UHGV virus genome: UHGV-1421865
Source of the DNA: a virus
Length of the DNA: 64,000 bases
Reading direction: 5' to 3' (one strand)
Positions 22,858 to 61,469 of this stretch are shown piece after piece (the stretch's first letter is position 1; each line of letters starts with the position of its first letter). The notes under the pieces are model-generated. The model was not told where the DNA came from, searched no databases, and was given only the letters and a program-made list of their open reading frames with translations. Position numbers and translations under genes: made by a program.

Positions 22858-23008
22858 GATTTTGTACAGTTTCTGTTTTGTGTACTGAGGTGTAAATATA
22901 TAACGTCCCCATAAAGGCACTTTTAAGGCTCTCTAACGCACTCAAATTAGTTGACCTTACCAACACCAAGGTCAAAGAAAAATCGTGCGTTAGAGTGGAG
23001 ATTTTACT
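22858..23008 (-). repeat. Conserved element, copy 2 (minus orientation), immediately upstream of the gene at 22153..22836
   Basis: The reverse complement reads ctctaacgcacgatttttctttgaccttggtgttggtaaggtcaactaatttgagtgcgttagagagccttaaaagtgcctttatgg...cacaaaacagaaactgtacaaa. Confidence 0.8.
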
Positions 23009-25207: not shown

Positions 25208-25274
25208 TTATACTTATATTGTATATAAATGATAATCCTTTCGTCTGCGTATTTACTATGTATACAAAACATTC

Positions 25275-25431
25275 AAAAACTTGCCCTCTAACGCACGATT
25301 TTTGTTGAGGCTTAGTAGTACCAAGGTAAGTGTATTTGAGTGCGTCAGAGAGCCTTAAAAGTGCCTTTATGGACGTGTCACGTATTTGTACGTCGGTGGG
25401 AAAAACACAAACCGGTCAAAATCGACAAAAT
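25275..25431 (+). repeat. Conserved element, copy 3 (plus orientation, between minus-strand genes); a hairpin and a plus-strand terminator follow it
   Basis: cttgccctctaacgcacgatttttgttgaggcttagtagtaccaaggtaagtgtatttgagtgcgtcagagagccttaaaagtgcctttatggacgtg...aaacacaaaccggtcaaaatc. Confidence 0.8.
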
Positions 25432-30888: not shown

Positions 30889-30984
30889 CAATTTTGACGG
30901 TTTCTGTTTCGCATACTGGTATGTATAAACGTAGAATCGTAATAAAGCCACCATATTCGTCCTCTGTCGCGTCCGAATGGTCTA

Positions 30985-31040
30985 GCCTTGGTACTACTAA
31001 GCCTCAACAAAAATCGTGCGATAGAGGAGAGATTTTCTCA
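30985..31040 (-). repeat. Conserved element, copy 4: a partial half-element in minus orientation
   Basis: ggtactactaagcctcaacaaaaatcgtgcgatagag is the reverse complement of the gcacgatttttgttgaggcttagtagtacc half found in copies 3 and 5. Confidence 0.6.
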
Positions 31041-31103: not shown

Positions 31104-34100
31104 TCAAAGTTTATAGCGTTTATTGACAGTTATTGATATAATATAGTGTTCTAGTTCTTTTAAGAGCGCCGGACGAATATCGAAAGCCAGTGTCTTGCTG
31201 TAGCTCTCTTCTAAACCGTTGTCCTTAAACATATAGTCCATTACGAGAGGTATAGTAATGTCCTTGTTGGAATCTATCGTGCTATATTGGTATTTATCGT
31301 ATTTGTTACATTGAAGCGACTCGACATCTTTCAATTCAAGATAAAGTACCGCACCGAACATCTTAGATTGGAATTCAGTACCCGGTCTACTGTTCTTCGC
31401 CGGATTCTTGATCTTATCCGAAGACGTGACCGGAATATCCACATAACGATAAATATCGGATATTGTATTATATACAAATGTATCTAAAAAGTCCCCGTCG
31501 TCGTACGTTAGGTTGTCTAAGTTATTTATCACATCGACGTTTTCCGAAGCTGTATTGTTTTTATCTAATACATTGTCGTTTTTAAGTACCAATTTATCGT
31601 CTTCTTTCACTAACGACAGTACTTTATTAGTCGCTACATTTATAATACCGTCACTGACATAACTTAAGATGCTGTTTTTATCGCCTATTCTGTACCGATA
31701 CGGCAACGACAGCTGTTGTTTGCTTTCAAGTATCCTATCTTGTGTGGCAATATCGTACCTTAGTCTATCTTTCTTCTCCAACGTCATATTTTTGCGATAC
31801 ACAGCCAAGTCTTTCATTCGTTGCTGCGGACTGTCGTAATAATAAGATTGATGGGTGTACGGATCCGTTGTTCTAAAATAGATAAATTGTCCCAACGTTT
31901 GTGCACGTGCTGTTTTAGTATCGTCTTTTATATGAAACGGTGTTCTTTCGTAGTCGCCTATCTTGTATTCGTAATAGTCTGCGTTTGTACACAGTAACGG
32001 TATCTTCACGTCGCCCGGAAATATACTATACAAATTCAAGTTTGTATCGTTCTCGTTTTTTATAACAAGATTAAATCGTTTTTGTGCATACCCCGATGTC
32101 AGTTCTTCGTGGTCGAACGAGATATAAGCCCGGTTATTACGATGTAGTTCTACTTTCTTGTCGTCGTATTCCAGGTACACCTTCAGATTAGAATGTAGCT
32201 CCGATTCGATAAGAGCTTTGTACTGTTGTAGTTCAGAATTCAGATCTGTTAGTTTATCCTTTAACGACAACATTTTACTGTCCTTGTCCATAAATCCGGA
32301 ATAGATGTTCTCCGGTGTATGATAGAACTTACGGTCTTTGGCTAAAATCTTATCGTCGACATGTTCTTGATAACCTTCGTTCAGTAGGTGCCGTATAAAG
32401 GCGGACTCTATTAAATCGGCGTTATTTTGTGTAACAATGTTGTATATACTGGTAACGTCGGCGTATTCGTGAGGGAACTGAATGACGAATTCTTCGCTCC
32501 ACGGTGTATATAAATCGATAAACGGTTGTCCGATAGAGTATTTGTATCTGAAACGAATCGTAACGTCTTCACCGACGACGATAGGAATATCCAGTTGGTT
32601 CCATCGTACACCGACGTCTTGCCCTTCTTTGAAGACTGGTTTGTATGCCCCGGTGACACTGTCGAAGACAATAGAACGTTCTCTTTCTATATTATACTGT
32701 TTATTCCATACCGACAACGATGTCTCGCCTCGCGTATTGATACCGGTAATAGCTGTGTTGTTAGAACTTGTATTCGAATACTTGTATTCTATATCTAAAG
32801 CGATAACATTGATTTCTTCGTTGTAGGTATCTTTTAACGCCAGTTCTAATGTATCGTACGCAGTAACACCACGGACAGCGAATTTAGGACTTTCAAAACC
32901 GTAAACGTCGTCTTTTATGTTATTGATATTGTCTATAATAGAAATATACTGTTTCTGGAGCGCGATTCGGTCTGTGTATTTCTTGTCGATTTCCTTCTTT
33001 AGCTCCGTCGCATTTGTAGCACCTTTCAGTATTTTGGTCTGTGTATCGTCGATACTACTTTGCAACGCCGTTAATGACGCGTTGATGTTCTGTTTTTGTT
33101 TATGTAAGTTAATAACGTCTTTAGAACTGTTGTCGTCGATAAGGTGCTTGTTTATCTGCACAACTTGTACATTATCTCGAACAAAGGTAGCACTAACAAT
33201 ACTTTTTATGGTATCAGAAGTTACTATCTCACTGATAATGAAGTTGTTAAAGTTACGAATAGACGGGTAGGCTACTTCTGTTAGTCCTAATATAATATCG
33301 CCGATGTTACGACAGTATTTTTTATAGTACTGAATGTAGTTCATACGAACATCGTTGTCGTACACATACTGGTTGTTTCTATCCTTTACAAAGACCTTTT
33401 CGAGGTCGACCAGGAACGGTTTACTGAACTCGCCGCGGACGTTATTGACAACCGAGCCGATAAAGACACAAATGTACCTGTTTTCTTCCAGTGGGATGTC
33501 GACGTATCTAAATTCCGAAAAGCTTTCGTTATATAAGACAAAATACATATCCTTGTCCTCGTTAATAGGTTGAAGGACTGTGTGGCCGATTTCCTCTTCT
33601 ACCTCTATATAGAACTTTTTATCGTCGCGATTACTGTTTTCTAATTTAGTTATCTTATATATAACATTACGGCCCGGAATAGTCAGCTTATCGCCGATGC
33701 GAAGGTACTGCTCTATGGCGTTATCTTCTGTTCCGGTGTACTTAAAGGTATTTATTCTGATACGATAGGTGTTATTTAGTCCGTCGATATGAGTGTTGTC
33801 GAGACGGGTTACGTCCAAGATCTCGAATCGACTGTCGTACTTGTTGTATTTTGTCGGCGCGGTGATGTGTGCGTCGTATTCGTCGTAATCGCGACCTGGA
33901 ACATAGTTGAACAGCGCTTGTTTGTATTCTTTGTACGACTGTAGATTGTTCCCCGACAGCAACGTAAAGAGTTCCTGACTGTATATTACAATCTTTTTAT
34001 ATACATATTCGTTTATCGTATCAGGAATGTTCTGAACATTCAGTCGAAGGTACATATACGGCGATACAAGGTCTTTGAGGAAATTGTTATCGCGGATGTG

Positions 34101-34436
34101 GACATGTCCAGAGTCGACATATTCGGGTTTGTTCGGTGCCGAGTTCCCTACCGACAGTTCTATTTTGTGCATATTGTCGGCATGTGTCAACCACGCGGAA
34201 CCCGTCTTGTTTAGATTTACCAGCGACTCGATAGAACTACTCAGTTCCTCTACCTTATTGTCTAAATAAAGTAACGATGGAATACGATATTCTGTATCGT
34301 CTTCTAATTTAATAGAAATTTCAGGCGATCTCGACAGTAGACTTTGGTTGATACTAGTGAGCATATTCACCGCGTCGTTGTACATCGACTGCAGTTTTAT
34401 GTAGTATTCTTTTAGAGATGAATTTTCTGTGACCAT
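31104..34436 (-). CDS. Large tail or baseplate protein of 1110 aa with coiled segments
   Basis: Long ORF with coiled-coil-like stretches; lies directly downstream of the 400-aa fibre-like gene. Confidence 0.55.
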   Translation of the reverse strand: MVTENSSLKEYYIKLQSMYNDAVNMLTSINQSLLSRSPEISIKLEDDTEYRIPSLLYLDNKVEELSSSIESLVNLNKTGSAWLTHADNMHKIELSVGNSAPNKPEYVDSGHVHIRDNNFLKDLVSPYMYLRLNVQNIPDTINEYVYKKIVIYSQELFTLLSGNNLQSYKEYKQALFNYVPGRDYDEYDAHITAPTKYNKYDSRFEILDVTRLDNTHIDGLNNTYRIRINTFKYTGTEDNAIEQYLRIGDKLTIPGRNVIYKITKLENSNRDDKKFYIEVEEEIGHTVLQPINEDKDMYFVLYNESFSEFRYVDIPLEENRYICVFIGSVVNNVRGEFSKPFLVDLEKVFVKDRNNQYVYDNDVRMNYIQYYKKYCRNIGDIILGLTEVAYPSIRNFNNFIISEIVTSDTIKSIVSATFVRDNVQVVQINKHLIDDNSSKDVINLHKQKQNINASLTALQSSIDDTQTKILKGATNATELKKEIDKKYTDRIALQKQYISIIDNINNIKDDVYGFESPKFAVRGVTAYDTLELALKDTYNEEINVIALDIEYKYSNTSSNNTAITGINTRGETSLSVWNKQYNIERERSIVFDSVTGAYKPVFKEGQDVGVRWNQLDIPIVVGEDVTIRFRYKYSIGQPFIDLYTPWSEEFVIQFPHEYADVTSIYNIVTQNNADLIESAFIRHLLNEGYQEHVDDKILAKDRKFYHTPENIYSGFMDKDSKMLSLKDKLTDLNSELQQYKALIESELHSNLKVYLEYDDKKVELHRNNRAYISFDHEELTSGYAQKRFNLVIKNENDTNLNLYSIFPGDVKIPLLCTNADYYEYKIGDYERTPFHIKDDTKTARAQTLGQFIYFRTTDPYTHQSYYYDSPQQRMKDLAVYRKNMTLEKKDRLRYDIATQDRILESKQQLSLPYRYRIGDKNSILSYVSDGIINVATNKVLSLVKEDDKLVLKNDNVLDKNNTASENVDVINNLDNLTYDDGDFLDTFVYNTISDIYRYVDIPVTSSDKIKNPAKNSRPGTEFQSKMFGAVLYLELKDVESLQCNKYDKYQYSTIDSNKDITIPLVMDYMFKDNGLEESYSKTLAFDIRPALLKELEHYIISITVNKRYKL

Positions 34437-34440
34437 AATG

Positions 34441-35643
34441 TTAGTTTATCGTTGTTGATGTTGTATCGAGATTCCAGCGTAAGGTATCTAAGATAGTTCT
34501 AAATTCGTCTAATTGCTTCTGGTTGTTCTGTTGTAGTTCTTTGAAGTTGGCCATCAACGTCTTTTGGACATTGTCTAACACAGTCTGTGACGACGACTGT
34601 GCCGTTATATTGTCTATTCTTGTATTTACGTCCATCAACTGACTCGATAAGGTATCTACTTTATTAGACAGAGCTGCAATCTGCGACAGTACCTGTGCGA
34701 AGGTGGCGAACGAATTGGTGATTTCTGAATTCCGTGCCTCCGAGGGCATTTGTTTAGAATATGGGAAGGGCTTGAACTGTGAGGCTATCGAAAGCGACCA
34801 TGTCGGTGCGAAGCCAGATACCTTGTCTCTTTTAAGGACAATATCGTCACCGAACCAGATACCGTACGGCACATTGATAGTACCCGTCGCTGGTAGTTGT
34901 TCACTGTCCTTAGAAAGTTCGCTTAGCGAGATATTATTCGTGACATAATTTGTATCGACCAAGTCGAACAGTGGTATAATACAGTTGAATACAAGCTCGT
35001 CTTTGACGGTACTGTTGTCTGTTACTTTAACATATTTGTTGGCTAATGTAGAATAGTAGTTTTTACCGTCTTGTGTAGTGTCAAATTCTGTTTCCAATGT
35101 AGACCATTCTGTGTTCGACAGCTCCTGTTCTGTCCAGCCGTACAGTCTTGTTTTGTTATCGGTTACTTCGATGAAACTTGTATTGTCTTGGGTTGTATCA
35201 GTAGGTTTGACTGTCCCACCAAGTTCAGTACTAACAATACTGTCTAAATTAACAATACAAATGGTGTCGGTATAGGTACCGTTATAGTCTTGTTCTGTTA
35301 TTTCGTTTATAGCACGTACTTCAAATCCGTCTATACTATCGTTGATAATACAGTCCAATAGATAGTTTAACGGTAGTAGCACATCGTTTGCCTTCGACCT
35401 ACTCTGACCGTCGAAATGGTCACGTAAGAATGCCAGTTTAGACTCGTAGTGTTTTATTAAGCTTTCTATTATAATAGGTTTATTCGTTTCAATGTTGGGA
35501 ATATAACAACAAAGGAATCTGGAGGGGTATAGTTTGGTATATGTCGACAAGAAATGACCCGTTAGTGCTTCGGTGTAATTACTAAACGTCAAAAACTTAC
35601 TGTCCGGACCGTCTTTATAAAATAAATTAGTTCTTCTTTTCAT
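34441..35643 (-). CDS. Putative tail fibre protein
   Basis: C-terminal heptad-like coil LSQIAALSNKVDTLSSQLMDVNTRIDNITAQSS...; the upstream region is dense with palindromic sites. Confidence 0.5.
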   Translation of the reverse strand: MKRRTNLFYKDGPDSKFLTFSNYTEALTGHFLSTYTKLYPSRFLCCYIPNIETNKPIIIESLIKHYESKLAFLRDHFDGQSRSKANDVLLPLNYLLDCIINDSIDGFEVRAINEITEQDYNGTYTDTICIVNLDSIVSTELGGTVKPTDTTQDNTSFIEVTDNKTRLYGWTEQELSNTEWSTLETEFDTTQDGKNYYSTLANKYVKVTDNSTVKDELVFNCIIPLFDLVDTNYVTNNISLSELSKDSEQLPATGTINVPYGIWFGDDIVLKRDKVSGFAPTWSLSIASQFKPFPYSKQMPSEARNSEITNSFATFAQVLSQIAALSNKVDTLSSQLMDVNTRIDNITAQSSSQTVLDNVQKTLMANFKELQQNNQKQLDEFRTILDTLRWNLDTTSTTIN

Positions 35644-35669
35644 GTGTTCTCTTTATAGTGATACAATTA

Positions 35670-35777
35670 AAAATCTCTATCAGAGATTTTATATTTGAAC
35701 TTTGTTCAAATCAAAAATCTGCGTCGCAGATTTCATATTTCAATTTATTGAAATCAAAAATCTATATCATCTGTTTT
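35670..35777. promoter_or_regulatory. Three spaced operator-like palindromes around an AAAATCT / AGATTTT dyad
   Basis: Sites read aaaatctct-atc-agagatttt (35670-35690), aaaatctgcg-t-cgcagattt (35714-35733) and the degenerate aaaaatctatatcatctgtttt (35756-35777), at about 44-bp spacing, interleaved with tgaac-ttt-gttca and ttcaat-tta-ttgaaa dyads. Confidence 0.5.
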
Positions 35778-35808
35778 GTACCATCTTCTTATAACTTATA
35801 AAACGCCC

Positions 35809-35960
35809 AAAAATTTGCTCTCTACCACACGATTTTTGTTGAGGCTTAGTAGTACCAAGGTAAGTGTATTTGAGTGCGTCAGAGAGCCTAAAAAGTGCCT
35901 TTATGGACGTGTTATGATTCTACTGTAGCCTACCCAGAACAGAAACCGTCAAAAAATCAA
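35809..35960 (+). repeat. Conserved element, copy 5 (plus orientation, between minus genes); a hairpin follows
   Basis: Nearly identical to copy 3 over about 100 nt. Tail is cagaacagaaaccgtcaaaaaatc followed by cagacg...cgtctg. Confidence 0.8.
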
Positions 35961-36007
35961 CAAAAAACAGACGCATTCTAGTTAAAGAACACGTCTGCTT
36001 GTTCAAA

Positions 36008-36922
36008 TTATAATATAGAATAAATCAAAGATTCTGTTCTGTTCTGCCACTGTCCGGATTTAATACTTCTTCTGATAGGTATATATTCTATTTTGTATCG
36101 TTTGTCGTTATATAGTGTCTCGAAGAATTTATCTGAGCCACTCGTATCGGAATTCGACTGTACCGTACACCCGCCGTTACTTATAATGTAATCTGATAAT
36201 TCTTTAATTTGTTTTTGACAAGAGTCGTCAAACGAGTTAGCGGTATAGCTACTGTATTCCGAATTGGTTTTGACTACATAATACGGTGGGTCGAAATATA
36301 CAAACGTCTTTTCGTCTTTGTTGTATACTTCTTTTAACAGACTATTAAAGTCTTTATTGTACAGTTCTGCTCTTTGTAGTAACGTAGAACATTCCTTAAG
36401 TGTATCAACATCAAATACAGCTGGATTCTTTTTACAACCGTGAGATACATTATATAAACCTTTTGAGTTTTCTCTGTACAGGCCATTGAATCCTGTCTTA
36501 TTAATGAACATAAAAAGTGCAGCGGACCGTACTGTGTTTTTAGGTTCTGCATTGTACTCGTCCCGACAGCGATAGTACATGTCTTCTCTGTCTGTACTAC
36601 CAAATTCATAACCTACATATTCTAATCTAAGATCAGTAAGTAAGTCAATCAAAGCATCTACATTGTCTCTAATTTGTTTATATACGTTAATAAGACCGGT
36701 ATTGACGTCATTTATCACGACACGCTTACAGTTTTTATAATGTTTTAGTATATAAAGCGACAATGCAGCGCTGCCGGCGAAAGGTTCTATAAAAGTGAAC
36801 TCCGGTGAGTTTAATATGTCTTTGTTTGTATGTGACAGTATAGTATCGATAATAGTATGTTTAGAACCGACCCATTTCAACACTTTCGGAATATCTACTT
36901 TATATTGTTTTATATCATTCAT
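36008..36922 (-). CDS. dam: N6-adenine DNA methyltransferase of the Dam / D12 class
   Basis: KWVGSKH (compare KWAGGK), EPFAGSAA and DPPY motifs appear in the order expected for Dam-family methyltransferases. Confidence 0.8.
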   Translation of the reverse strand: MNDIKQYKVDIPKVLKWVGSKHTIIDTILSHTNKDILNSPEFTFIEPFAGSAALSLYILKHYKNCKRVVINDVNTGLINVYKQIRDNVDALIDLLTDLRLEYVGYEFGSTDREDMYYRCRDEYNAEPKNTVRSAALFMFINKTGFNGLYRENSKGLYNVSHGCKKNPAVFDVDTLKECSTLLQRAELYNKDFNSLLKEVYNKDEKTFVYFDPPYYVVKTNSEYSSYTANSFDDSCQKQIKELSDYIISNGGCTVQSNSDTSGSDKFFETLYNDKRYKIEYIPIRRSIKSGQWQNRTESLIYSIL

Positions 36923-36942: not shown

Positions 36943-37443
36943 TTAACCACGAAGTGTTATTATTCTCTGATTGACAGAGCCTCTAAACTTTAAGTTCAAG
37001 TCTTTCTGCGACTCTTCGAAACGCCCGTCGACTAAGGTACCGATATAGTCCAAATACGGTCGACACAGTTCGTTCTGTTGTAAGTCTTCTAACAAATAAC
37101 CTGTCCATACCCATACGTCGGTAGTGTACTTGTTAATTAGTTTGAACAGTTCTAGTACGTCTTCAGAAGCCTGCACATGCCCGTTCCATGCGTGGTAGAA
37201 AGGATCACCCCCTAAGATAGATACTTTTACAGGTGTCGACGTATATGATTTTAGAAGAGACTCTATATAAGGTAATTTGTCTGTCAACAAATCCCCTTTA
37301 TTCGGGTCCCAGGTATGTGGTGACCAACACCCTTTACAGGCATTAGAACAACCACTCAACCATATCGACAGTCGAATACCCGGACCGTTCTGTACGTCGT
37401 ATTTATGAATTGCTAAGACACGTGATTGCATTGTATCTGTCAT
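36943..37443 (-). CDS. nrdG: Anaerobic ribonucleoside-triphosphate reductase activating protein (radical SAM)
   Basis: CX3CX2C cluster (CSNACKGC) plus [30 protein letters not shown] and FRGSVNQ, which are collinear with E. coli NrdG motifs. Confidence 0.8.
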
Positions 37444-38731
37444 CTTGATTTGGTATTATTTGATGTAGTTCGAATTGCTCGGCAAATTCCTTAACTTCCG
37501 TCTTAATAGCCTGCAAGGCATCGTCGTCATTCCACTTGTCGATAGCACGCACGATAAAGTTAGCGACCCATACCATATCCTCTTCGTCCATACCTCTTGT
37601 TGTTAGAGCTGCAGTACCAATTCTGATGCCAGATGTTTGGAACGGACTTCGCTTGTCGTACGGTATCATGTTCTTATTAACGGTGATACCGGCTTTTTCT
37701 AATGCGATTTCTACCTGCTTTCCTGTAAGGTCGGGATGTGCGTACGTTAGGTCGACCAAGAAAGAGTGATTGTCTGTACCACCCGACACAATTCGTTCAC
37801 CCCAGTGTTGTAGACTTGTAGCCAACGCTTGTGCGTTCTTAATTACTTGCTGTGCATATAATCGAAATTCTGGTTCACAAGCCTCTTCGAAACATACGCA
37901 TTTCGCTGCGATGACATTCTCCAACGGACCGCCTTGAATACCAGGAAAGACCATACTATCGATGACTTCCGACATCATTTTTACGCTGCCGTCTTTCTTT
38001 CGTAGACCTTTAGGATTTTCAAAGTCTTTTCCCATCAAGATAATACCGCCACGAGGTCCGCGCAATGTCTTGTGTGTCGTCGATGTTACAATATGTGCGT
38101 ACTTTACAGGGTTACTCAAACATTTACCGGCGATAAGTCCCGCGGTATGTGCCATATCGACAACAAGGACCGCACCGATACTATCGGCGATCTGTCGAAG
38201 ACGTTCCCAGTCCCATTCTCTGGAATATGCCGACGCACCTGTCATAATCATTTTGGGACGATGTGAGGTAGCTAACAATTCTAATTCGCTGTAGTCTACA
38301 CGTTCTGTGTTGGGGTCTACATGATACGGAATAGGTTTGTAAAGCATACCAGACAGATTAACAGGAGAGCCGTGAGTAAGGTGGCCGCCGTGTGCCAAGT
38401 CGAGACCTAAGAATTTATCACCTGGTTCCAGTACAGCATTGAAAACAGCCTGGTTCGCTTGAGACCCAGAGTGTGGTTGAACATTGGCATACGTCGCATC
38501 GAACAATTTACAAACAGTATCAATAGCTCGTTGTTCTATTTTGTCTATTACTTCACAGCCACCGTAGTATCGTCTGCCGGGATAACCTTCAGCGTACTTA
38601 TTAGTAAGTACAGAACCCAAGGCGTACAATACGCCATTCGATACATAGTTTTCTGAGGCAATCAGTTCGAGACCGAACAGCTGCCGCTGAGTTTCGTCTA
38701 ATATAAGATCGTATACATTTTTTTCAAGCAT
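37403..38731 (-). CDS. glyA: Serine hydroxymethyltransferase
   Basis: [26 protein letters not shown], a PLP-lysine context ([12 protein letters not shown]) and GHLTHGSP all say SHMT. The 3' end overlaps the nrdG start by about 41 nt. Confidence 0.9.
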
Positions 38732-41408: not shown

Positions 41409-41449
41409 TTCACTTGTGATACTTATATTCTGAGGACTTTATTGTTATA

Positions 41450-41487
41450 TATATATTATATAGTCTACTTTGTGAACAAAATCAGCA
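41450..41487 (-). promoter_or_regulatory. Sigma70-like promoter with the conserved spacer (cTGATT-N17-TATATAAT)
   Basis: On the minus strand: cTGATTttgttcacaaagtagacTATATAAT, upstream of the paralog array. Confidence 0.55.
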
Positions 41488-41585
41488 TGTAAAACATACA
41501 AAATCAGTGTACTTGTGCACAAAAATCAATGTACCAAATTAGAATAGAGTGATTTTCAAATAAGACGTATATAAAGAACACCGAC

Positions 41586-51250: not shown

Positions 51251-51400
51251 CAAAAATTTGCTCTGTATCGCATTATTTTTCTTAGCCTTGGTGTAACTAA
51301 GGTCACTACATTTGAGTGCGTCAGAGGGCCTTAAAAGTGCCTTTATGAAGACGTAGGGTATTTACATACCAGTATGCAAAACAGAAACAACACAAAAACT
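51251..51400 (+). repeat. Conserved element, copy 6, between convergent terminators
   Basis: tttgctctgtatcgcattatttttcttagccttggtgtaactaaggtcactacatttgagtgcgtcagagggccttaaaagtgcctttatg...cagtatgcaaaacagaaacaacac. Confidence 0.8.
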
Positions 51401-51950: not shown

Positions 51951-52424
51951 TCATTTCACTACTAACGTAGACGGCTCACCTACTACACTTTCAGACACTG
52001 TTTCTGTGGCTTTATGATCTTCAGGTTCAGGCACAACGGGAGACGACAAGACACTGTCATGTACGTCAGCTTTATGATCCTCAGGTTCAGGTGCTGTGAG
52101 AGAAGTTACTACAGTGTCATGTACATTGGCTTTATGTTCTTCTGATGCTACTGCCGCCACGGTTACTGTCTCTCCAGCAACGTCGCCTAAAACGGGCACT
52201 GTAGGTGTCACTAAACTGTCACCATCAGTATCTGTTAATGTAGTGTCAATAGCTTTTCTAAATGCAGCAGCTTCTGCATTGGCATCTGTTTTACCGACAG
52301 ACCATTTGATAAAGTCGTGTAGTGCCTTTTGTTCGTCTGTTTTAGGATCCAGTGCTGTGTTAAAATCGGCTTCACTGATGTGTACAAGACCGGTTAGATC
52401 AAGAAATTTTTGGTATAGTGTCAT
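51951..52424 (-). CDS. Hypothetical protein with an internal duplicated segment
   Basis: APEPEDHKADVHDSVLSSPV and APEPEDHKANVHDTVVTSLT occur as a repeat. Confidence 0.5.
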   Translation of the reverse strand: MTLYQKFLDLTGLVHISEADFNTALDPKTDEQKALHDFIKWSVGKTDANAEAAAFRKAIDTTLTDTDGDSLVTPTVPVLGDVAGETVTVAAVASEEHKANVHDTVVTSLTAPEPEDHKADVHDSVLSSPVVPEPEDHKATETVSESVVGEPSTLVVK

Positions 52425-54914: not shown

Positions 54915-55070
54915 AGAAAATCTGCCCTCTAACGCACGATTTTTCTTTGACCTTGGTACTACTAAGGTCGCTACATTTGAGTGCGCCAGAGAGCCTAAAA
55001 AGTGCCTTTACGTGGACGTCAGATATTTACACATCAGTATGCAAAACAGAAACGTCAAAATAACCAACCC
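54915..55070 (+). repeat. Conserved element, copy 7; the strong terminator at 55082 follows
   Basis: ctgccctctaacgcacgatttttctttgaccttggtactactaaggtcgctacatttgagtgcgccagagagcctaaaaagtgcctttacgtggacgtc...cagtatgcaaaacagaaacgtcaaaataacc. Confidence 0.85.
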
Positions 55071-55159: not shown

Positions 55160-55320
55160 TAAAAACTTGCCCTCTAACGCACGATTTTTCTTTGACCTTG
55201 GTGTTGGTAAGGTCAACTAATTTGAGTGCGTCAGAGGGGCTAAAAAGTGCCTTTACGGACGTGTGATGATTCTGTACGTCGGTGTACAAAACAGAAACCA
55301 CCCAATCAGCCCCAATATAT
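55160..55320 (+). repeat. Conserved element, copy 8, in tandem with copy 7; a hairpin follows
   Basis: cttgccctctaacgcacgatttttctttgaccttggtgttggtaaggtcaactaatttgagtgcgtcagaggggctaaaaagtgcctttacggacgtg...gtacaaaacagaaaccacccaatc. Confidence 0.85.
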
Positions 55321-55522: not shown

Positions 55523-55595
55523 TACGGCCACTGGGATTCAAACCCAGGTAGTCCCTTTAGAAGAGGGATATTCTATTCAATTGAATTATAGCCGC
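55523..55595 (-). tRNA. tRNA-Arg(TCT)
   Basis: Hand fold: acceptor GCGGCTA/TGGCCGT with two G-U pairs, D stem ATTC/GAAT, anticodon arm TCCCT-cttctaa-AGGGA, T arm CTGGG-tttgaat-CCCAG. Confidence 0.65.
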
Positions 55596-55604
55596 ATGTA
55601 AGTG

Positions 55605-55703
55605 TGGTATCTACAAGAATTGAACTTGTGACACACGGATTTTCAGTCCCACGCTCTGGTCAACTGCGTTGACTTACTTTGTCACCAACTGAGCTACATC
55701 ACC
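55605..55703 (-). pseudogene. Degenerate tRNA-Phe(GAA)-like locus with a 26-nt hairpin inserted in the D-loop
   Basis: Has GTAGCTCAGTTGGT...AGAGC, a CTGAAAA anticodon loop and a T arm ACAAG-ttcaatt-CTTGT. The acceptor strands and the anticodon stem do not pair. Confidence 0.35.
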
Positions 55704-55705
55704 GA

Positions 55706-55781
55706 TGGTTGCCTTGCAAGGATTCGAACCTCGACTATTTGAACCAAAATCAAATGTGCTAAACCATTACACCACAAGGCA
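55706..55781 (-). tRNA. tRNA-Gln(TTG), CCA encoded
   Basis: Acceptor TGCCTTG/CAAGGCA, anticodon arm TTTGA-ttttggt-TCAAA, T loop ttcgaat, 3' ACCA. Confidence 0.7.
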
Positions 55782-55811
55782 AGACAATTATTGTGTACTA
55801 TACACAATCAG

Positions 55812-55885
55812 TCACGCCGGTGGGACTCGAACTCACAACTCCTTGCTCCCAAAGCAAGTACCTTAACCGATTAGGCTACAGCGTG
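55812..55885 (-). tRNA. tRNA-Pro(TGG)
   Basis: Anticodon arm CTTGC-tttggga-GCAAG and T loop ttcgagt; the acceptor has one wobble pair. Confidence 0.65.
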
Positions 55886-56022
55886 GGATCTTATAGTGTT
55901 CATGACCACATATAAGATCTGTACGATGAAAGGCTACACATCGCCATGTAAGATTTGTATTTTATACAAATCACCGACCGTTAGGCTATATTTTTATAAA
56001 AAATAGCTGTCGGGCACTGTCG

Positions 56023-56109
56023 CGGAAGGTGCAAGATTCGAACTTGCGGTACAGTTACCTGTACATCTCCTTAGCAGGGAGACGGTTTAAGCCACTCACC
56101 CAACCTTCC
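56023..56109 (-). tRNA. tRNA-Ser(GCT), class II
   Basis: Acceptor GGAAGGT/ACCTTCC, anticodon arm TCTCC-ctgctaa-GGAGA, long variable arm, T arm GCAAG-ttcgaat-CTTGC. Confidence 0.8.
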
Positions 56110-56114
56110 TAAAA

Positions 56115-56195
56115 ATAGTCCCAGGCCAGGATTCGAACCTGAATTTCGTCTCCAATGAGACGTGTATTAGCCTTTATACTAACTGAGTAATATAG
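56115..56195 (-). pseudogene. tRNA-like remnant: a T arm is present, but there is no foldable anticodon arm or 5' acceptor
   Basis: caggTTCGAATcctg T arm; the central segment forms a cgtctc-attg-gagacg mini-hairpin instead of an anticodon arm. Confidence 0.3.
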
Positions 56196-56270
56196 TTGCG
56201 GGAGGGGGACTCGAACCCAACCGATCTTCAGCTTATGAGGCTGACGAGATGCCATCTTCTCTATCCCGCG
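56196..56270 (-). tRNA. Initiator-type tRNA-fMet(CAT)
   Basis: Starts CGCGGGA and ends TCCCGCAA, giving a C1-A72 mismatch as in bacterial tRNA-fMet. Anticodon arm is TCAGC-ctcataa-GCTGA. Confidence 0.65.
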
Positions 56271-56280
56271 ATATTTTGAT

Positions 56281-56580
56281 TTAGTTTTCCATTTTTGGTT
56301 TATAAGATACTGTCTTAATTTCTTCACCTTCAAAAGCATAGCAATTAACATCACAATCAGAAGCCAGCATGTATTCACTGTATACATTAGATAAACCTTC
56401 AATACCCAAAATACCGTCTTCTAATTGAAAGTAAGAAGTGCTGGTTTCGTACCATCTATGACGGTTTATATCAATGTTACTTGCTAATTGTGTTTCGTAG
56501 TCAATTACACTTTCTGCATCGTCTATATAATAGAGTTCTTCAGAATTATTTATTCGTTCTATTGCTTCTTTTAGTTTCAT
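56281..56580 (-). CDS. Hypothetical protein
   Basis: 99-aa ORF. Confidence 0.4.
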   Translation of the reverse strand: MKLKEAIERINNSEELYYIDDAESVIDYETQLASNIDINRHRWYETSTSYFQLEDGILGIEGLSNVYSEYMLASDCDVNCYAFEGEEIKTVSYKPKMEN

Positions 56581-56586
56581 AATTAA

Positions 56587-56770
56587 ATTGAATTAAAAAC
56601 AAATGTCGTCATGCCAATTGCTTAACATATCACTACGGAATTCTTTCGCATCATCTAAATACTCAGACAAAAACGAAGACACTTCCTTAAAGTTGCTTAT
56701 GTCACCATTAAAGGGTACGTTAAGTACATCTTGACAAAATCTAACGGCAGCTTTTTGTCTTTCTGTTGTC
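56587..56770 (-). CDS. Small hypothetical protein of about 60 aa
   Basis: Hand translation gives MTTERQKAAVRFCQDVLNVPFNGDISNFKEVSSFLSEYLDDAKEFRSDMLSNWHDDICF. Confidence 0.3.
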
Positions 56771-56773
56771 ATA

Positions 56774-56846
56774 AGTTCGCTCGCTGGAACTCGAATCCAG
56801 GACTCCTTGATTAAAAGTCAAGTGCTCTACCAACTGAGCTACGAGC
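56774..56846 (-). tRNA. tRNA-Lys(TTT)
   Basis: Acceptor TCGCTCG/CGAGCGA, D arm GCTC-agttggtag-AGC, anticodon arm CTTGA-cttttaa-TCAAG, T arm CTGGA-ttcgagt-TCCAG. Confidence 0.8.
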
Positions 56847-56867
56847 GATTCTATAAACTATACAAGT

Positions 56868-56941
56868 TGCGGACAATGCAGGATTCGAACCTGCGACCTA
56901 CTGATTAACAGTCAGCCGCTCTAACCATCTGAGCTAAATGT
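56868..56941 (-). tRNA. tRNA-Asn(GTT)
   Basis: Anticodon loop ctgttaa, D arm GCTC-agatggtta-GAGC, T arm GCAGG-ttcgaat-CCTGC, discriminator G. Confidence 0.75.
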
Positions 56942-56955
56942 CCATACTCTATTAT

Positions 56956-57027
56956 AGAGCTTCCTGTCAGAGTCGAACTGACAACCTCTTCATTACAAGT
57001 GAAGCGCACTGCCATTGTGCTAAGGAA
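56956..57027 (-). tRNA. tRNA-Thr(TGT)
   Basis: Acceptor GCTTCCT/AGGAAGC, anticodon arm CTTCA-cttgtaa-TGAAG, T arm GTCAG-ttcgact-CTGAC. Confidence 0.8.
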
Positions 57028-57147
57028 GCGAATGCTTCCAGTATATCACGTTAGTGACATTAAGGAAGCGAATGCTTCCAGTATATCACGTTAGTGACAT
57101 TAAGGAAGCGAATGCTTCCAGTATATCACGTTAGTGACATTAAGGAA
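57021..57147. repeat. 40-bp tandem direct repeat, 3.2 copies, starting inside the 5' end of tRNA-Thr
   Basis: Unit aggaagcgaatgcttccagtatatcacgttagtgacatta, three times and perfect. Each unit holds the palindrome ggaagc-gaat-gcttcc and a TATACT (-10-like) on the tRNA strand. Confidence 0.85.
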
Positions 57148-57215
57148 GCAGGTGTAGTCTAAATTAGACTTTGATTGTGGTGTAAAATCACGCTAATTAA
57201 ACTACATTCATTGAG

Positions 57216-57290
57216 GGTGTCCTATGGGATTCGAACCCATGACCTTCAGAACCACAATCTGACGTTCTAACCGTCTGAACTAAGGACAAC
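57216..57290 (-). tRNA. tRNA-His(GTG) with an encoded G-1
   Basis: Anticodon arm TCAGA-ttgtggt-TCTGA, D arm GTTC-agacggtta-GAAC, T arm ATGGG-ttcgaat-CCCAT. The extra 5' G pairs with discriminator C73, a His-specific feature. Confidence 0.7.
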
Positions 57291-57388
57291 ATGATGGTGG
57301 AAAAACGACTGCGCCCCACCTACGCAAGGTCTTCAAAGACCACCGACCGTGTTTTATAGTTAACTATAAAAGTAATCAGGTACTGTCG

Positions 57389-57488
57389 TGGACCAGGTAG
57401 GACTTGAACCTACGACTCTGGAAAACAAACTAGAGAAAGGAGGTTAAACTAGTGTGAATTCGGCTCTGGCCATCTGAGCTACTGGTCC
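57389..57488 (-). pseudogene. Interrupted or intron-like tRNA gene: acceptor, D and T arms are canonical, but the anticodon and variable region is 49 nt
   Basis: GGACCAG-TA-GCTC-agatggcca-GAGC and GTAGG-ttcaagt-CCTAC-CTGGTCC-A. No 17-nt anticodon arm can be folded. The insert carries an actag/ctagt stem and, on the opposite strand, AAGGAGGT followed by GTG then TGA. Confidence 0.45.
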
Positions 57489-57582
57489 GGTTGACGGTCA
57501 AACGCTCCACACCGTCGGGTGGATGTCTGTACTAAACAGACAACAAACAGTATGCTTGAATCAGAGGCCGTTGTGCTTATTG

Positions 57583-57657
57583 ACAGTGTTATAGGATTCG
57601 AAACTACATCTCTTGATTCAAAACATCAAGGCTCTACCAATCTTTGAGCTAGACACC
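57583..57657 (-). pseudogene. tRNA-like locus with a Lys-type anticodon arm; the acceptor does not pair
   Basis: D arm GCTC-aaagattggta-GAGC and anticodon arm CTTGAT-gttttga-ATCAAG are fine; the T stem and acceptor are aberrant. Confidence 0.3.
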
Positions 57658-57864
57658 GCGCATGTAGTTTTTCTATGCCCACATAAACTACAAAAATGTT
57701 CTGTTTGCTATGTATTCTTTGAACACGTAGTGTTCATACGTTGAACAGCTGTCTGTTTGAGGTTAATTCTGTGCACAGAAACATAGCCTTAACATGGGTC
57801 TTTACAATATGATTTGCAACGCAATACGATTCGTACTAAGCACGACACCAGTATTGTTCTATTT

Positions 57865-57898
57865 ATAATAATAGCGAACTTTGTGAGGTAAATCAGCG
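57865..57898 (-). promoter_or_regulatory. Sigma70-like promoter with the conserved spacer, upstream of the tRNA block
   Basis: On the minus strand: cTGATTtacctcacaaagttcgcTATTAT. Confidence 0.5.
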
Positions 57899-57923
57899 TA
57901 ATTTACAAGAAAAATCAGTAAAG

Positions 57924-58271
57924 TCAATCATTAAATTCATAATTTAGTACCTTACGGACTTTTTTATAAGTGCTAATTACTATCTGGTCGTTATAGACCC
58001 AATAGGTTTCCTCTTCATTGTGAGGGGGGATTCCACTGTTTATTTTCTTTAGATAAAAGAGAATGAATATCAGCAGCGTAACGAAACAAAGGTAGTGTAC
58101 GTTACCGATAAGCAACAACAGTATATGCCACAGTTTAACTCGGAAATTCCTATTAGGGTACCTGTGTACATTAAAACCTCGGTGGTCTACATCGAAATCG
58201 TAGTACTGTGTATTGAACAACACACGTAGTTCTATTAGAAACAGAACAATACCTGGTACATACCACATCAT
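57924..58271 (-). CDS. Membrane protein with two or three TM helices
   Basis: Hydrophobic N-terminus MMWYVPGIVLFLIELRVLF and LLLIGNVHYLCFVTLLIFILFYL. Confidence 0.45.
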   Translation of the reverse strand: MMWYVPGIVLFLIELRVLFNTQYYDFDVDHRGFNVHRYPNRNFRVKLWHILLLLIGNVHYLCFVTLLIFILFYLKKINSGIPPHNEEETYWVYNDQIVISTYKKVRKVLNYEFND

Positions 58272-58302
58272 ATTTTAAGAACTTAATTAAACTTCAACGT
58301 AT

Positions 58303-58500
58303 TTAGTCATAGCCTTTATAGACTCTTTTGAACTTGTGAACGTCACAGTCTTCAAAGACGACTCTGTTTCTGTGTCTGATGTACCGATTCAATTGATTCT
58401 TCAACCATTTTCTTTCACCGGCCTTGATGTACTTTCTTTTCTTGTGGTCTTTATTGTAAGGCAATAAAGTTGAACACAGTTGTAGTCTACGTAATGCCAT
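58303..58500 (-). CDS. Small basic protein of 65 aa
   Basis: Lys/Arg-rich: KRKYIKAGERKWLKNQLNRYIRHRNR. Confidence 0.35.
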   Translation of the reverse strand: MALRRLQLCSTLLPYNKDHKKRKYIKAGERKWLKNQLNRYIRHRNRVVFEDCDVHKFKRVYKGYD

Positions 58501-58505
58501 ATCTA

Positions 58506-58862
58506 CTAATATAATCCAGCATGTCGCTTAATAGGTTCATAATACAACTCGTCTACTCGTTCGTTGCTGTACTTATCGTTTATTGCGACAACCAGCTTAC
58601 CATCTTTTTCTGAAACAACATACTCAGCAATGGTCCGACCGAACACATAAAGTACGATGTGTAGGTTTTTATAGTTCGAATGATCGAACATCACTTCAAT
58701 TTCATCGAGCAGGGCACATTCATTATGATACAGATACGGCAATGTTTCTACGAAATCGATGATGCTATCGGTATTGGTGAATTTTGAATATGCGCAAAAC
58801 ATAACAAACTCGTCTCTGTCACTATCGACAGGATAACCTGACTTCATTTCTGTGTACAACAT
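58506..58862 (-). CDS. Hypothetical protein
   Basis: 118-aa ORF with a conserved-spacer promoter immediately upstream. Confidence 0.5.
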   Translation of the reverse strand: MLYTEMKSGYPVDSDRDEFVMFCAYSKFTNTDSIIDFVETLPYLYHNECALLDEIEVMFDHSNYKNLHIVLYVFGRTIAEYVVSEKDGKLVVAINDKYSNERVDELYYEPIKRHAGLY

Positions 58863-58904
58863 ACTGTGTAATTTTTACTGGTCTTGTTTCTAACTTGATT
58901 TGTT

Positions 58905-58941
58905 ATATATTATATAGTCTACTTTATGAATAAAATCAACT
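58905..58941 (-). promoter_or_regulatory. Sigma70-like promoter with the conserved spacer
   Basis: On the minus strand: TTGATTttattcataaagtagacTATATAAT. Confidence 0.55.
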
Positions 58942-59111
58942 TATGTAGTACCAGAAGCGGGACTCATCGTACATGAAAATCTAAATCATTACATTTAGTT
59001 TTCACTTCTTGCTTCAATCTATCACTACTAATTGTAATCAATATCACAATCCCATAGGAGGATAGTCCACAAGCGTAAATTCGGTACTACGAATACCTAC
59101 TAGTTTTGTTC

Positions 59112-60251
59112 TTATACTGCACTTATCCTACGACCCTCGTAGAGGATATTTAGTGCTGCATTGTAATCTCTATCATGGTTTGTGCCACATTTAGGACAAC
59201 ACCAATAACGGTCTTGTAACTTCAAGTCATTGTGTACATAACCACATTGTGAACAAGTCTTTGAGCTGGGATAAAATCGATCAATAAGTACAACCTTCTT
59301 GTCGTTTTGTAAAGCCTTAGTTGATAGCACAGTCTTGAACTTAAAAAATCCAACTTCTTGGATTGCCTTGGCAAGTTTATGATTTTTCATCATCCCTTAT
59401 ACATTCAAGTCTTCCATGTAGACAGTATCATACTGTGACAATAACTCATTTACTACAGAATGTATATAGTTTTCCTTCTTATTCGTAATAGTCTCAAACA
59501 CTTTCGCTATCCTCTTACACTGTTTATAGAAGTTGTTTGAACCTTTACGTTTCCTCGACAACTGTCGTTGTAGCTTTACAAGTCGCTTTTCTTCTTTATT
59601 ATAGAAATGTTTGTTGTCAAATGTAGTGTCATCTGATGTTATAACAAAATCCTTAACACCTAGATCGATACCGACATCACGACCTGTTTTATTGAACTTA
59701 GTAAGTTCGTTATCATTCATATCAATAAGAATAGATAAGAAGAAATTCCCACTCTTGGTTTTCGATAAGGTTGCACTTCTTATATTGTTCTTATATCTAC
59801 GCAATCTTGCCAAGTACAAATCAGAACATCTAAATGATATGTCTTTTAATTTGGTTGTAAGTGTTATCTTACGTGTCACAAATGTATTTTTCTTGGATAT
59901 TGTACCTTTCGGGAACAACGCAGATTGGTTATTCTTCTTCGACTTGAACTTTGGAAACCCATTATGTTGTTTGAAGAATTTTTGGTAGCCACTATCCATT
60001 TGTCTAATAGCTTGATTCATTATCTTTGTATTCTGTTCCTTCAACCAAGCATATTGTTCATCTTTCAATAACTCATGATGAAAATGTTTGGATAGTTGAG
60101 TTGTTCCAAGATTTGTTTTATCTGTGTTATACGCTTCTTGTTTACGAGCAAGCATGTAGTTATAAACAAAACGATAACACCCAAGCACACTATTTAGTAC
60201 CTGTTCTTGTGTTTTATTTGGATATAACCTTATTTTGATTGCTCGTAACAT
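59112..60251 (-). pseudogene. tnpB: IS200/IS605-family tnpB (OMEGA / RNA-guided nuclease), interrupted by an in-frame TAA
   Basis: N-terminus MLRAIKIRLYPNKTQEQVLNSVLGCYRFVYN and GIDLGVKDF (RuvC-I) ...MEDLNV, then TAA, then in the same frame GMMKNHKLAKAIQEVGFFKF...CSQCG...CPKCG...HDRDYNAALNI (zinc finger plus RuvC-III). Hand translation confirms a single in-frame stop where a Lys codon is expected. Confidence 0.8.
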
Positions 60252-60293
60252 TGATTTCCTTATTTAACTACTTGATTGTTTACTGTTACTATT

Positions 60294-60382
60294 TGGTGCC
60301 CGAAGTGGGGGTCGAACCCACACGAACATTACTGTTCAAGAGATCCTAAATCTCTCATGTATACCAATTTCATCATTCGGGC
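60294..60382 (-). tRNA. tRNA-Leu(TAG), class II, CCA encoded
   Basis: Acceptor GCCCGAA/TTCGGGC, anticodon arm AGAGA-tttagga-TCTCT, variable-arm hairpin GAACA-gtaa-TGTTC, T arm GTGGG-ttcgacc-CCCAC, 3' ACCA. Confidence 0.8.
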
Positions 60383-60635
60383 AACTAAGTATGGTTATAA
60401 CGTTACCAACGCAGCTCACTAAGACTAATTCGCGACTTAGCAAATAATGATTACTCCGAGATTTGGAATGTATAATTACTCTATCTTCTACGGCTGTATG
60501 ATAGAAACCTAATTAGTTTAGGATACTCTGGGTCCCAATGTGCCCAAATTTTGCATACTCTTATCGTACGTTATATATGTTAATAGTATGCGAAAAACAT
60601 ATACACGCCAGTTTCTAGTGACTTGGGTACTGTTG

Positions 60636-60709
60636 TGGACCAGGTAGGGATTGAACCTACGACCTTCGCCTTATGAGGGCGCCGCTCTGTACCACTGAGC
60701 TACAAGTCC
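60636..60709 (-). tRNA. tRNA-Met/Ile(CAT), elongator type
   Basis: Anticodon loop ctcataa; the T arm and 3' acceptor are the same as in the interrupted tRNA at 57389. The acceptor has one mismatch. Confidence 0.55.
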
Positions 60710-60714
60710 TTATT

Positions 60715-60790
60715 CAAGACAGTATAGGATTCGAACCTATGACGTTGGTATAATCACCTTAAGCATTCGTCCACTCTGCCAAGCTGTCTT
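60715..60790 (-). pseudogene. tRNA-like locus: good T arm and acceptor, but the D and anticodon arms do not fold
   Basis: ATAGG-ttcgaat-CCTAT, acceptor AGACAGC/ACTGTCT; no canonical anticodon arm. Confidence 0.3.
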
Positions 60791-60809
60791 GTTATAAATG
60801 TGTATTAGT

Positions 60810-61193
60810 TTAGTAAGTAAAAGTAATACTATAGATATAATCGTCGTTATAGTTTTCAAGAATCTCTTGAAATACAGTTAAGACTTTCTTCACATCCTTA
60901 AAATAATTATTATTGTATTTTGACGGTACAAATAAGAAATGATCTGTTGTCGGTAACAATTCAGTACACATGCTGTGATCTTCTAATACAAGTGTACAAT
61001 CCTCAACTAAATACTCAATTTCTTCTTTTGTAATTGGTGTATTATGAATACAATTTTCTCCGTACGGATGTCCAGCGAAATACCTATAAAGAAAGTTAAT
61101 ATCAGTAAGAAGACTAATATCTTCATATTCAGAACCCATACCCGTACGGTGTTCTTCTTTAAGTCCTCTACCAATCTCAATTTTCAAACTCAT
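60810..61193 (-). CDS. Hypothetical protein
   Basis: 127-aa ORF immediately downstream of tRNA-Leu(TAA). Confidence 0.5.
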   Translation of the reverse strand: MSLKIEIGRGLKEEHRTGMGSEYEDISLLTDINFLYRYFAGHPYGENCIHNTPITKEEIEYLVEDCTLVLEDHSMCTELLPTTDHFLFVPSKYNNNYFKDVKKVLTVFQEILENYNDDYIYSITFTY

Positions 61194-61221
61194 AACCTAC
61201 TTGATTGTTTACTGTTACTAT

Positions 61222-61308
61222 TTGGTACCCGAAGTGGGGGTCGAACCCACATGGTCTACTGACCAAAAGATTTTAAATCTTTCATGTATACCGATTTCAT
61301 CATTCGGG
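61222..61308 (-). tRNA. tRNA-Leu(TAA), class II, CCA encoded
   Basis: A paralog of the tRNA at 60294 including about 30 bp of 3' flank. Anticodon arm AAAGA-tttaaaa-TCTTT. Confidence 0.75.
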
Positions 61309-61469
61309 CATTGTATATACTATAATCCGTCCCCAACCGCTATTATAGTATATGATTCATTACAAATTTATGGCTTCTGACTGGACGGTTTTGTAATTAC
61401 GCAGGAAATGTTCTTCATCTTAGGAAGACAAATCCCGAAACTGAATGTATTTATACATCAGCGAGTAGT

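Follow-up and report, generated by a model that had tools for sequence, protein, structure and literature searches.

A cluster of conserved, covarying stem-loops upstream of a two-gene module in an uncultured gut jumbo phage

A run of short hairpins lies in a 364-bp gap flanked by two minus-strand genes of the virus genome UHGV-1421865, of which a stretch of 64,000 nucleotides (hereafter the window) was analysed. The hairpins are unique, are conserved with compensatory changes in related genomes and have a free 3-nt loop. The cluster is best described as a set of conserved, lineage-specific stem-loops, for which a role in transcription termination or attenuation is the favoured but tentative reading. 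Selection has very likely acted on stem-loops rather than on a plain double-stranded DNA operator, and the folded single strand is most probably the active form, most likely in the minus-strand (coding-strand) transcript. An earlier note, made from the letters of the window, had described an array of operators for a dimeric regulator in front of a tail-fibre gene. The repeated palindromic element directly upstream of the genes at 34441..35643 and 31104..34436 was confirmed and proved to be conserved, which makes a regulatory role plausible.

Almost nothing is known about the transcription layout of uncultured gut jumbo phages related to PAU and pT24. A covarying hairpin cluster is a concrete, testable cis-element for termination, attenuation or factor binding. 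It adjoins a high-copy structured repeat (R) that is in no RNA family database, and it precedes a gene pair that more than 1300 metagenomic phage sequences share. If the hairpins are just weak terminators, they belong to the ordinary punctuation of the genome. If a specific factor reads them, they would define a regulatory signal not seen before in phages and offer a way into the function of the gene pair.

Organization of the hairpin cluster

Four perfect hairpins form one unbroken run in the order A1-B1-A2-B2, with linkers of 2-3 nt and a measured period of 44/43 bp (Table 1), which bears out the spacing of about 44 bp reported before. Two types alternate: A has the form AAATC-variable stem-GATTT, and B has the form ATTTSA-variable stem-TSAAAT. 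On the coding (minus) strand, A1 is followed by TTTTTAATTG and A2 by TTTTTGATTTG. The stems are weak (-5 to -9 kcal/mol, 3-4 G-C pairs). The two 9-bp dyads were found at the positions and with the sequences given in the earlier note. The secondary dyads placed between them also exist, but they had been drawn too short and are really 8-bp stems. The degenerate third site has the shared flank, but it holds no foldable dyad (0 bp on both strands) and forms no hairpin.

The motif AAATCT-N1-9-AGATTT occurs twice in the window, both times in the cluster, against 0.11 expected occurrences. Whether at least two or at least three adjacent hairpins of at least 7 bp are required, the window contains one such cluster, and shuffled sequences gave 0.1 and 0.0, respectively. 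Whichever strand was folded, and whether RNA or DNA parameters were used, the folding z-scores lay between -4.1 and -6.6, and the 126-nt stretch resolves into separate hairpins in both the minimum-energy and the centroid structures. The cluster is the sole one of its kind in the 64-kb window plus about 190 kb of related loci. A search for further dyads, which had been proposed earlier, yielded none: the motif AAATC-N-GATTT recurs neither in the window nor in the 128 kb of a related genome that were searched, and the 11-mer flank occurs nowhere else but at this locus. A closing helix around the whole cluster (GGTACAA/TTGTATC) was seen in the fold of the window; it was inconsistent in the relatives and is not claimed.

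Conservation and covariation of the stems

The locus was compared among nine genomes, namely the window and loci of eight distinct genomes in which the 400-aa protein of the first downstream gene is 82-90% identical. In all eight further genomes the cluster has kept its location, with the same repeat on its upstream side and the same start codon on its downstream side. Each genome has 2 or 3 A hairpins, differing in 43/44-nt steps, and a genuine third A hairpin is present in L135 and L137 where the window has the degenerate unit. Individual hairpins have decayed (A1 in L138, A1 and A2 in L137, the third unit in the window); every one of the nine genomes retains at least two A hairpins and one B hairpin. 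Since the number of units shifts by 43/44-nt steps, the region is not coding. Two small plus-strand open reading frames (ORFs; 35658..35801 and 35776..35928) were rejected, as the same indels break their frames among the relatives. In relatives of about 40% identity, the gene pair adjoins a divergent AT-rich region, and the cluster is missing there.

The upper stems and loops vary between copies and genomes, and the complementarity of the upper stems is retained. Variants of the A stem include CTCT/AGAG, CTGCG/CGCAG, CTACG/CGTAG, CGAC/GTCG, CAAAC/GTTTG and TGACC/GGTCA. The orthologues of A1 have CAAAC/GTTTG, TTGC/GCAG or TGACC/GGTCA as upper stems, and CTACG/CGTAG and CGAC/GTCG are variants of A2. 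Compensatory variants are also found in the B stem (GAAC/GTTC, CAGT/ACTG and CAAT/ATTG), and the loop sequences show no conservation. In an alignment of 11 A-B-A units from the nine genomes, in four rows of which one base pair was taken out of a 21-nt hairpin to hold register, 96.1% of the cells were paired, compared with 87% in shuffles. Double-sided changes affected 8 pairs and 26 cells. None of 500 shuffles matched the covariation score, and slid controls paired at just 30-50%. Within the A palindromes, complementarity counted outward from the centre is 13-15 of 16 at positions 2-5 and drops to 3 of 16 at the innermost pair. This fall to chance at the central pair indicates a free 3-nt loop. 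Among the wobble cells, four G.U favour the sense strand and five A.C favour the antisense strand, so there is no strand bias, and sense RNA, antisense RNA and single-stranded DNA are not distinguishable on this basis.

The lower stems and linkers behave differently from the upper stems. They are invariant in the nine genomes as 14-bp blocks, GATTTTTRATTTSA and the near-inverse TSAAATRTNAAATC, whereas the spacer of 30-50 nt from the upstream repeat to the cluster diverges freely in the same alignment. This invariance of sequence implies some sequence reader, which may be a protein, RNA polymerase or another RNA, and a sequence-specific reader of the lower stems and linkers is therefore likely.

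The same data bear on the possibility that the cluster has no function, which we consider quite improbable. In that case, a tandem palindromic unit would be kept by hairpin-templated repair or template switching beside R, which looks mobile. The variable copy number, the decay of single hairpins in some genomes and the restriction to one clade are in keeping with this explanation. However, template switching would carry the palindromy to the centre, where the central pair is at chance, and it accounts neither for invariant lower stems and linkers amid a diverging spacer nor for the fact that none of the nine genomes has fewer than two A hairpins and one B. The REP/BIME elements of enterobacteria occur in hundreds of dispersed copies and are linked to RAYT transposases; roles as RNA hairpins, as barriers or as protein-binding sites have been suggested for them. 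They share with the cluster imperfect palindromes, alternating orientation, short conserved linkers and an intergenic location. In contrast, the cluster is a single locus, and no RAYT-type transposase was seen.

Possible operators for a dimeric regulator

The operator explanation offered before stands in part. A dimeric DNA-binding protein would bind the inverted blocks (AAATC...GATTT or GATTTTTRATTTSA / TSAAATRTNAAATC) cooperatively at 22/44-bp spacing and control the nearby promoter, which we regard as unlikely. The invariant outer half-sites do fit such a factor: the AAATC and GATTT blocks and the linkers are unchanged in 11 units of nine genomes beside a diverging spacer. In addition, the 43-44-bp period would place the sites on one face of the helix, a promoter-like box lies immediately downstream of the cluster, and wobble shows no strand bias. 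Tandem operators of the lambda OR1-3 type and palindromic iterons such as those of lambda ori have the same repeated dyads, conserved outer half-sites, helical phasing and promoter-adjacent position. However, the centres in the cluster differ and yet remain self-complementary around a free centre the size of a loop, and binding to duplex DNA leaves unexplained both the compensatory changes in the centres and the loss of complementarity exactly at the 3-nt loop. L136 has T-A in place of the C-G pair that is invariant in the half-sites elsewhere, so that both arms are altered together. The motif has no second locus in the window or in the 128 kb of the related genome, and the third site is no dyad. 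No cognate regulator gene was recognised nearby, since no helix-turn-helix or other DNA-binding domain was recognisable in 20 neighbouring ORFs, which agrees with the earlier remark that no obvious repressor gene is adjacent.

Table 1. Positions of the hairpins, genes, box and R copies in the window
Feature	Position	Strand	Remarks
Hairpin A1, gene-proximal	35670..35690	-	AAAATCTCT-atc-AGAGATTTT; 9 bp, 3-nt loop
Hairpin B1	35693..35711	-	ATTTGAAC-ttt-GTTCAAAT; 8 bp, 3-nt loop
Hairpin A2	35715..35733	-	AAATCTGCG-t-CGCAGATTT; perfect 9-bp palindrome, effectively 8 bp + 3-nt loop
Hairpin B2	35737..35754	-	ATTTCAAT-tt-ATTGAAAT; 8 bp
Degenerate third unit	about 35752..35780	-	flank AATCAAAAATCT repeated, tail GATTTTTGATTT kept, left arm replaced by ACAAAACAGATGATATA
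Box between A1 and ATG (candidate promoter)	35644..35669	-	TTAATTGTATCACTATAAAGAGAACAC; conserved in relatives
Gene 1	34441..35643	-	400-aa protein, no functional match
Gene 2	31104..34436	-	1110-aa protein, phrog_29329, no functional match
R copy directly upstream of the cluster	35808..35949	-	at this place in every cluster-bearing genome
Canonical intrinsic terminator	35965..36000	-	15-bp stem + T-run; closes the Dam methylase unit
Upstream gene (Dam)	36008..36922	-	D12-class N6-adenine DNA methyltransferase
R copy	6280-6410	-	
R copy	22867-23005	+	
R copy	25274-25414	-	
R copy	30897-31037	+	
R copy	51251-51388	-	
R copy	54916-55053	-	
R copy	55161-55300	-	

Possible termination or attenuation in the minus-strand transcript

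As a tentative reading, which is the most economical one, the cluster consists of weak terminator or attenuator hairpins that insulate the downstream two-gene module. The A hairpins, each followed by UUUUURAUU, would act as serial weak intrinsic terminators or pause sites. Transcription arriving from R or from the upstream Dam operon would be stopped or throttled at the cluster, which would then serve as an attenuator or insulator. The two-gene module may be expressed from its own promoter, or only once termination is overcome, and the invariant lower stems and linkers may be read by RNA polymerase or by a phage factor. The RNA nature of the folded strand, its identity as the sense strand, the effect of folding on termination or attenuation and the promoter role of the box before the ATG are inferences.

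The termination reading is supported by the invariant TTTTT[GA]ATT that follows each A hairpin on the coding strand. Furthermore, three other R copies in the window have a canonical terminator 20-30 nt further on, a position that is occupied here by the cluster. The adjacent R copy, with its strand-specific fold on the minus strand, and the conserved box that separates the cluster from the gene point the same way. The earlier note had named, as the outcome that would speak against operators, dyads that are present only here and that act as terminators for an upstream transcript. The dyads are indeed confined to this locus and the A hairpins have a terminator-like U-run, which goes half of the way towards that outcome. 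The cluster resembles intrinsic terminators and composite terminator/promoter cassettes (PeSLs) in having stem-loops with an A-tract on one side and a T-run on the other (on the transcribed strand), in its intergenic location between an upstream unit and a promoter-like box, and in the compensatory variation of stems with the T-run kept (PMC4122927, PMC2839356). PeSLs are known in T4-type phages (PMC4122927), and Bacteroidota jumbo phages such as PTm1 have been assigned to the T4-type supergroup (PMC7824862).

Several points weigh against termination. The B hairpins have a U-run on neither strand, so that termination accounts for half of the cluster only. Stems of -5 to -9 kcal/mol are weak, and a consensus terminator scan did not list the cluster hairpins. 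A terminator would not require the lower stems and linkers to be exactly invariant, and the wobble cells give no preference for the sense strand. Among 38 R copies of all loci, few were found in a strict perfect-stem search to have a strong terminator just downstream. The cluster also differs from a typical terminator in form, since a single strong hairpin is replaced by a row of four to five weak ones (8-9 bp, mostly A-T), half of them (B) lack the U-run, and their lower stems do not vary in sequence. PeSLs are dispersed, whereas the window has only one such cluster and one such box, and the dispersed element here is R.

The hairpins could also belong to a structured 5' leader, which is again unlikely. 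The mRNA would start further upstream, for instance at a promoter of R. The hairpins would be bound by an RNA-binding regulator that recognises the conserved base of the stem, or would serve as stabilising or processing signals, and in both cases they would control translation or stability of the two-gene mRNA. Selection for stem-loops with sequence-specific lower stems is typical of hairpins that are recognised by proteins, R folds on the same strand just upstream, and the 126-nt stretch folds as separate hairpins. On the other hand, the loops are not conserved, the box at a variable distance from the ATG is more promoter-like than leader-like, distant relatives express the same gene pair without such a leader, and no candidate RNA-binding protein was found.

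Possible signals in single-stranded DNA or decoy RNA

A signal in single-stranded DNA would be an origin or priming site, or a site of the partition or packaging type, at which hairpins extruded from unwound DNA or from the lagging strand are recognised by a replication or segregation protein of the phage. The chance of this is low. There is one locus per genome, it lies inside a nucleotide-metabolism and replication module (Dam, an NrdG-like protein, serine hydroxymethyltransferase (SHMT) and ThyX upstream; family-B polymerase (PolB) downstream), and the repeat number varies as in iteron arrays. Folding is as significant with DNA parameters as with RNA parameters, and no strand bias was found. 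The F-plasmid centromere sopC consists of 12 near-identical direct repeats of 43 bp, each with a short inverted repeat, and the tandem period of 43-44 bp with an inverted repeat per unit is similar. However, iterons and centromere repeats are normally identical, whereas the centres differ here inside one genome, and the cluster has only 2-3 units. No ParA or ParB genes were found nearby, and none of the adjacent genes was recognised as one for an initiator, ParB or the small terminase subunit. No AT-rich unwinding stretch stands out nearby, and the distant relatives lack the cluster.

A decoy RNA against host defence is very improbable and has largely been refuted. The cluster would either imitate a CRISPR repeat, as Racrs (solitary repeat units) do, or form an array like those of type III antitoxins. 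It is a tandem RNA-like repeat of 43-44 nt with variable copy number, and the A2 stems of L005, L008 and L136 read TCTAC..GTAGAT, which as RNA (UCUAC-loop-GUAGAU) presumably resembles the repeat handle of Cas12a. Racrs, type V-A included, exist in phages (PMC10651486). Such RNA anti-CRISPRs and solitary repeat units (PMC10651486), as well as ToxI-like arrays, share with the cluster short, structured, non-coding intergenic repeats of variable copy number downstream of a promoter-like region. In contrast, the cluster matches no CRISPR repeat family and no host genome: no Rfam match, CRISPR-DR families included, was obtained in the window or its relatives, and the conserved block was unmatched in 185,579 species-representative genomes (GTDB) and in IMG/VR. 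The TCTAC..GTAGAT core is missing from the window, and the stems differ among copies and genomes, whereas a mimic must copy one repeat. The repeats are also non-identical, unlike those of ToxI-like arrays; no toxin gene of the ToxN/AbiQ type follows, and PADLOC found nothing. The family of the 400-aa protein occurs without repeats in distant relatives, which likewise counts against a ToxI-like array.

In summary of these comparisons, the operator, leader-RNA, origin and CRISPR-mimic explanations are weaker than termination or attenuation.

The dispersed repeat R

R is an element of about 140-190 nt with a conserved 5' box, GGTTTCTGTTTYG. Eight full copies in both orientations were located in the window by a profile search (Table 1), and at least 17 copies that match a strict pattern were counted in a related genome, whose sequence is spread over two contigs. 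The main helix of R has 12-13 bp, with 5-7 compensatory pairs, and one of its positions is G.U in 15 of 23 copies. The G.U pairs make the fold of R strand-specific, and the folding strand at this locus is the minus strand. R belongs to no Rfam family, and the strict pattern was unmatched in IMG/VR and in GTDB representative genomes. It looks like a multi-copy small-RNA gene or a regulatory cassette. Many R copies are bracketed by canonical terminators; the proposal that R always has a following terminator was rejected, as this holds for just three of the eight copies in the window. Other R copies are not accompanied by a hairpin cluster.

A more far-reaching and rather doubtful proposal takes the two elements together. 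The cluster and R would form an undescribed regulatory module of a gut jumbo-phage clade, in which the many R copies would make up a new family of structured small RNAs of phages, and the hairpins, specific in both sequence and structure and read by a phage factor in RNA or in transient single-stranded DNA, would switch on the two-gene module. A hairpin-dependent antitermination or promoter-activation switch may serve as an example.

A near-identical insertion of 37 nt, TATATTCACTGACGTGAATACTCAACGCACAGCGTTG, which contains two small hairpins, was observed in the apical hairpin of two R copies. The copies are in different genomes and at different loci (L004, about 2845-2885; L144, about 11060-11100), which suggests a mobile mini-insert or long and short forms of R.

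The box before the start codon and promoter candidates

The box between A1 and the ATG reads TTAATTGTATCACTATAAAGAGAAC and may be a promoter. Sub-clades differ in how far it lies from the ATG (12 or 30 nt), and L004 and L137 have a duplication of 13 nt of the box. The box sequence TTGTATCACTATAA was found at no other site in the window, and a comparable TATAAAGAACAC precedes the gene at 41586.

Other promoter types were considered and rejected. The host-type consensus of Bacteroidota is TAnnTTTG (PMC7366714). It showed no intergenic enrichment, and its lone match in the cluster is on the plus strand and has no -33 element. A scan for sigma-70-type promoters gave matches at chance level. TATAAA, as in T4 late promoters, was mildly enriched near starts, and this enrichment is confounded by the AT-rich composition. 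The idea of one promoter per unit was given up, since the relatives do not keep the -10-like hexamer.

Two further arrangements were observed elsewhere in the window. In the divergent region 41409-41585, three TGATTTT(T)G boxes exactly 22 bp apart occur on the minus strand (41483-41527) and are followed by GTAGACTATATAAT. The arrangement TGATTTTG-N13-CTATATAA recurs before other minus-strand genes, at 30552, 30884 and 61708. It is possibly the promoter type of the phage itself, and it does not fit the TAnnTTTG consensus.

The downstream gene pair

The coordinates given previously for the two downstream genes are correct, and the start codon of gene 1 was confirmed by an N-terminus that is invariant in 42 homologues. 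The 400-aa protein has more than 1300 homologues in metagenomic phage sequences, and it is always paired with a protein of 1100-1230 aa. Only distant homologues of the 1110-aa protein were found. They occur in the jumbo phages pT24, PTm1/5, PAU and MA9V, and those from phages of Tenacibaculum, Chryseobacterium and Sphingomonas share about 23% identity with it; the PAU homologue is unannotated.

The designation of gene 1 as a tail-fibre gene was not upheld. Neither protein has a match of known function in Pfam, PHROG, NCBIfam, PADLOC or PDB sequences. An AlphaFold model of the 400-aa protein (mean predicted local distance difference test score, pLDDT, 68) has a beta-rich core and a C-terminal helical hairpin. 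A fold search with this model matched only uncharacterised proteins of PAU/PTm1-like and uncultured phages, and entries named 'tail fiber' appeared only at E>0.3. The gene pair sits amid nucleotide-metabolism and replication genes, and in distant relatives it lies beside a helicase or an exonuclease. A virion role of the gene pair is conceivable but not indicated.

The second gene was also seen in another form. L001 (7259-10540) has an identical 400-aa gene and hairpin region, and its second gene encodes 1093 aa after a gap of 55 nt. In the window, the second gene (31104-34436) encodes 1110 aa and abuts gene 1. The large gene thus varies between otherwise identical strains.

Genomic setting

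The source is an uncultured gut jumbo phage of about 200 kb, and its host probably belongs to the Bacteroidota. The identical sequence is present on metagenomic contigs of 187-223 kb. No DNA-level relative of the window was found among 50,697 deposited phages (INPHARED) or in IMG/VR, where a 16-mer scan gave chance matches only. The window also encodes a terminase, a portal protein, a family-B polymerase and a cluster of 14-16 tRNAs, and Shine-Dalgarno motifs are absent before its start codons.

Upstream of the cluster, the Dam gene is preceded by genes for a radical-SAM protein resembling the activase of anaerobic ribonucleotide reductase (NrdG-like) and for SHMT. PolB is encoded 6 kb downstream of the cluster. 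The nucleotide-metabolism block at 36943-38731, with SHMT and the NrdG-like radical-SAM activase besides Dam, may hint at modified DNA, and modified DNA has been reported for phage PAU (PMC7824862). In some relatives, ThyX is inserted between Dam and the region of R and the hairpins (L005/L008, 1791-2624).

The tRNA cluster (55523-61540) comprises 14-16 genes, every one on the minus strand. ARAGORN reported one tRNA with an abnormal 2-nt anticodon (56118-56188), and two long tRNA matches, possibly intron-containing, were obtained by Rfam only (55605-55703 and 57389-57488). A perfect 40-bp tandem repeat (57021-57149; 3.2 copies, 100% identity) is located within the tRNA cluster. It begins inside the 3' end of tRNA-Thr (56957-57029), and its unit holds the hairpin GGAAGCGAATGCTTCC. 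Other tandem repeats, with 76-82% identity, are present at 63186-63364 (75 bp x 2.4) and at 52009-52136 (60 bp x 2.1), the latter inside or beside small minus-strand ORFs.

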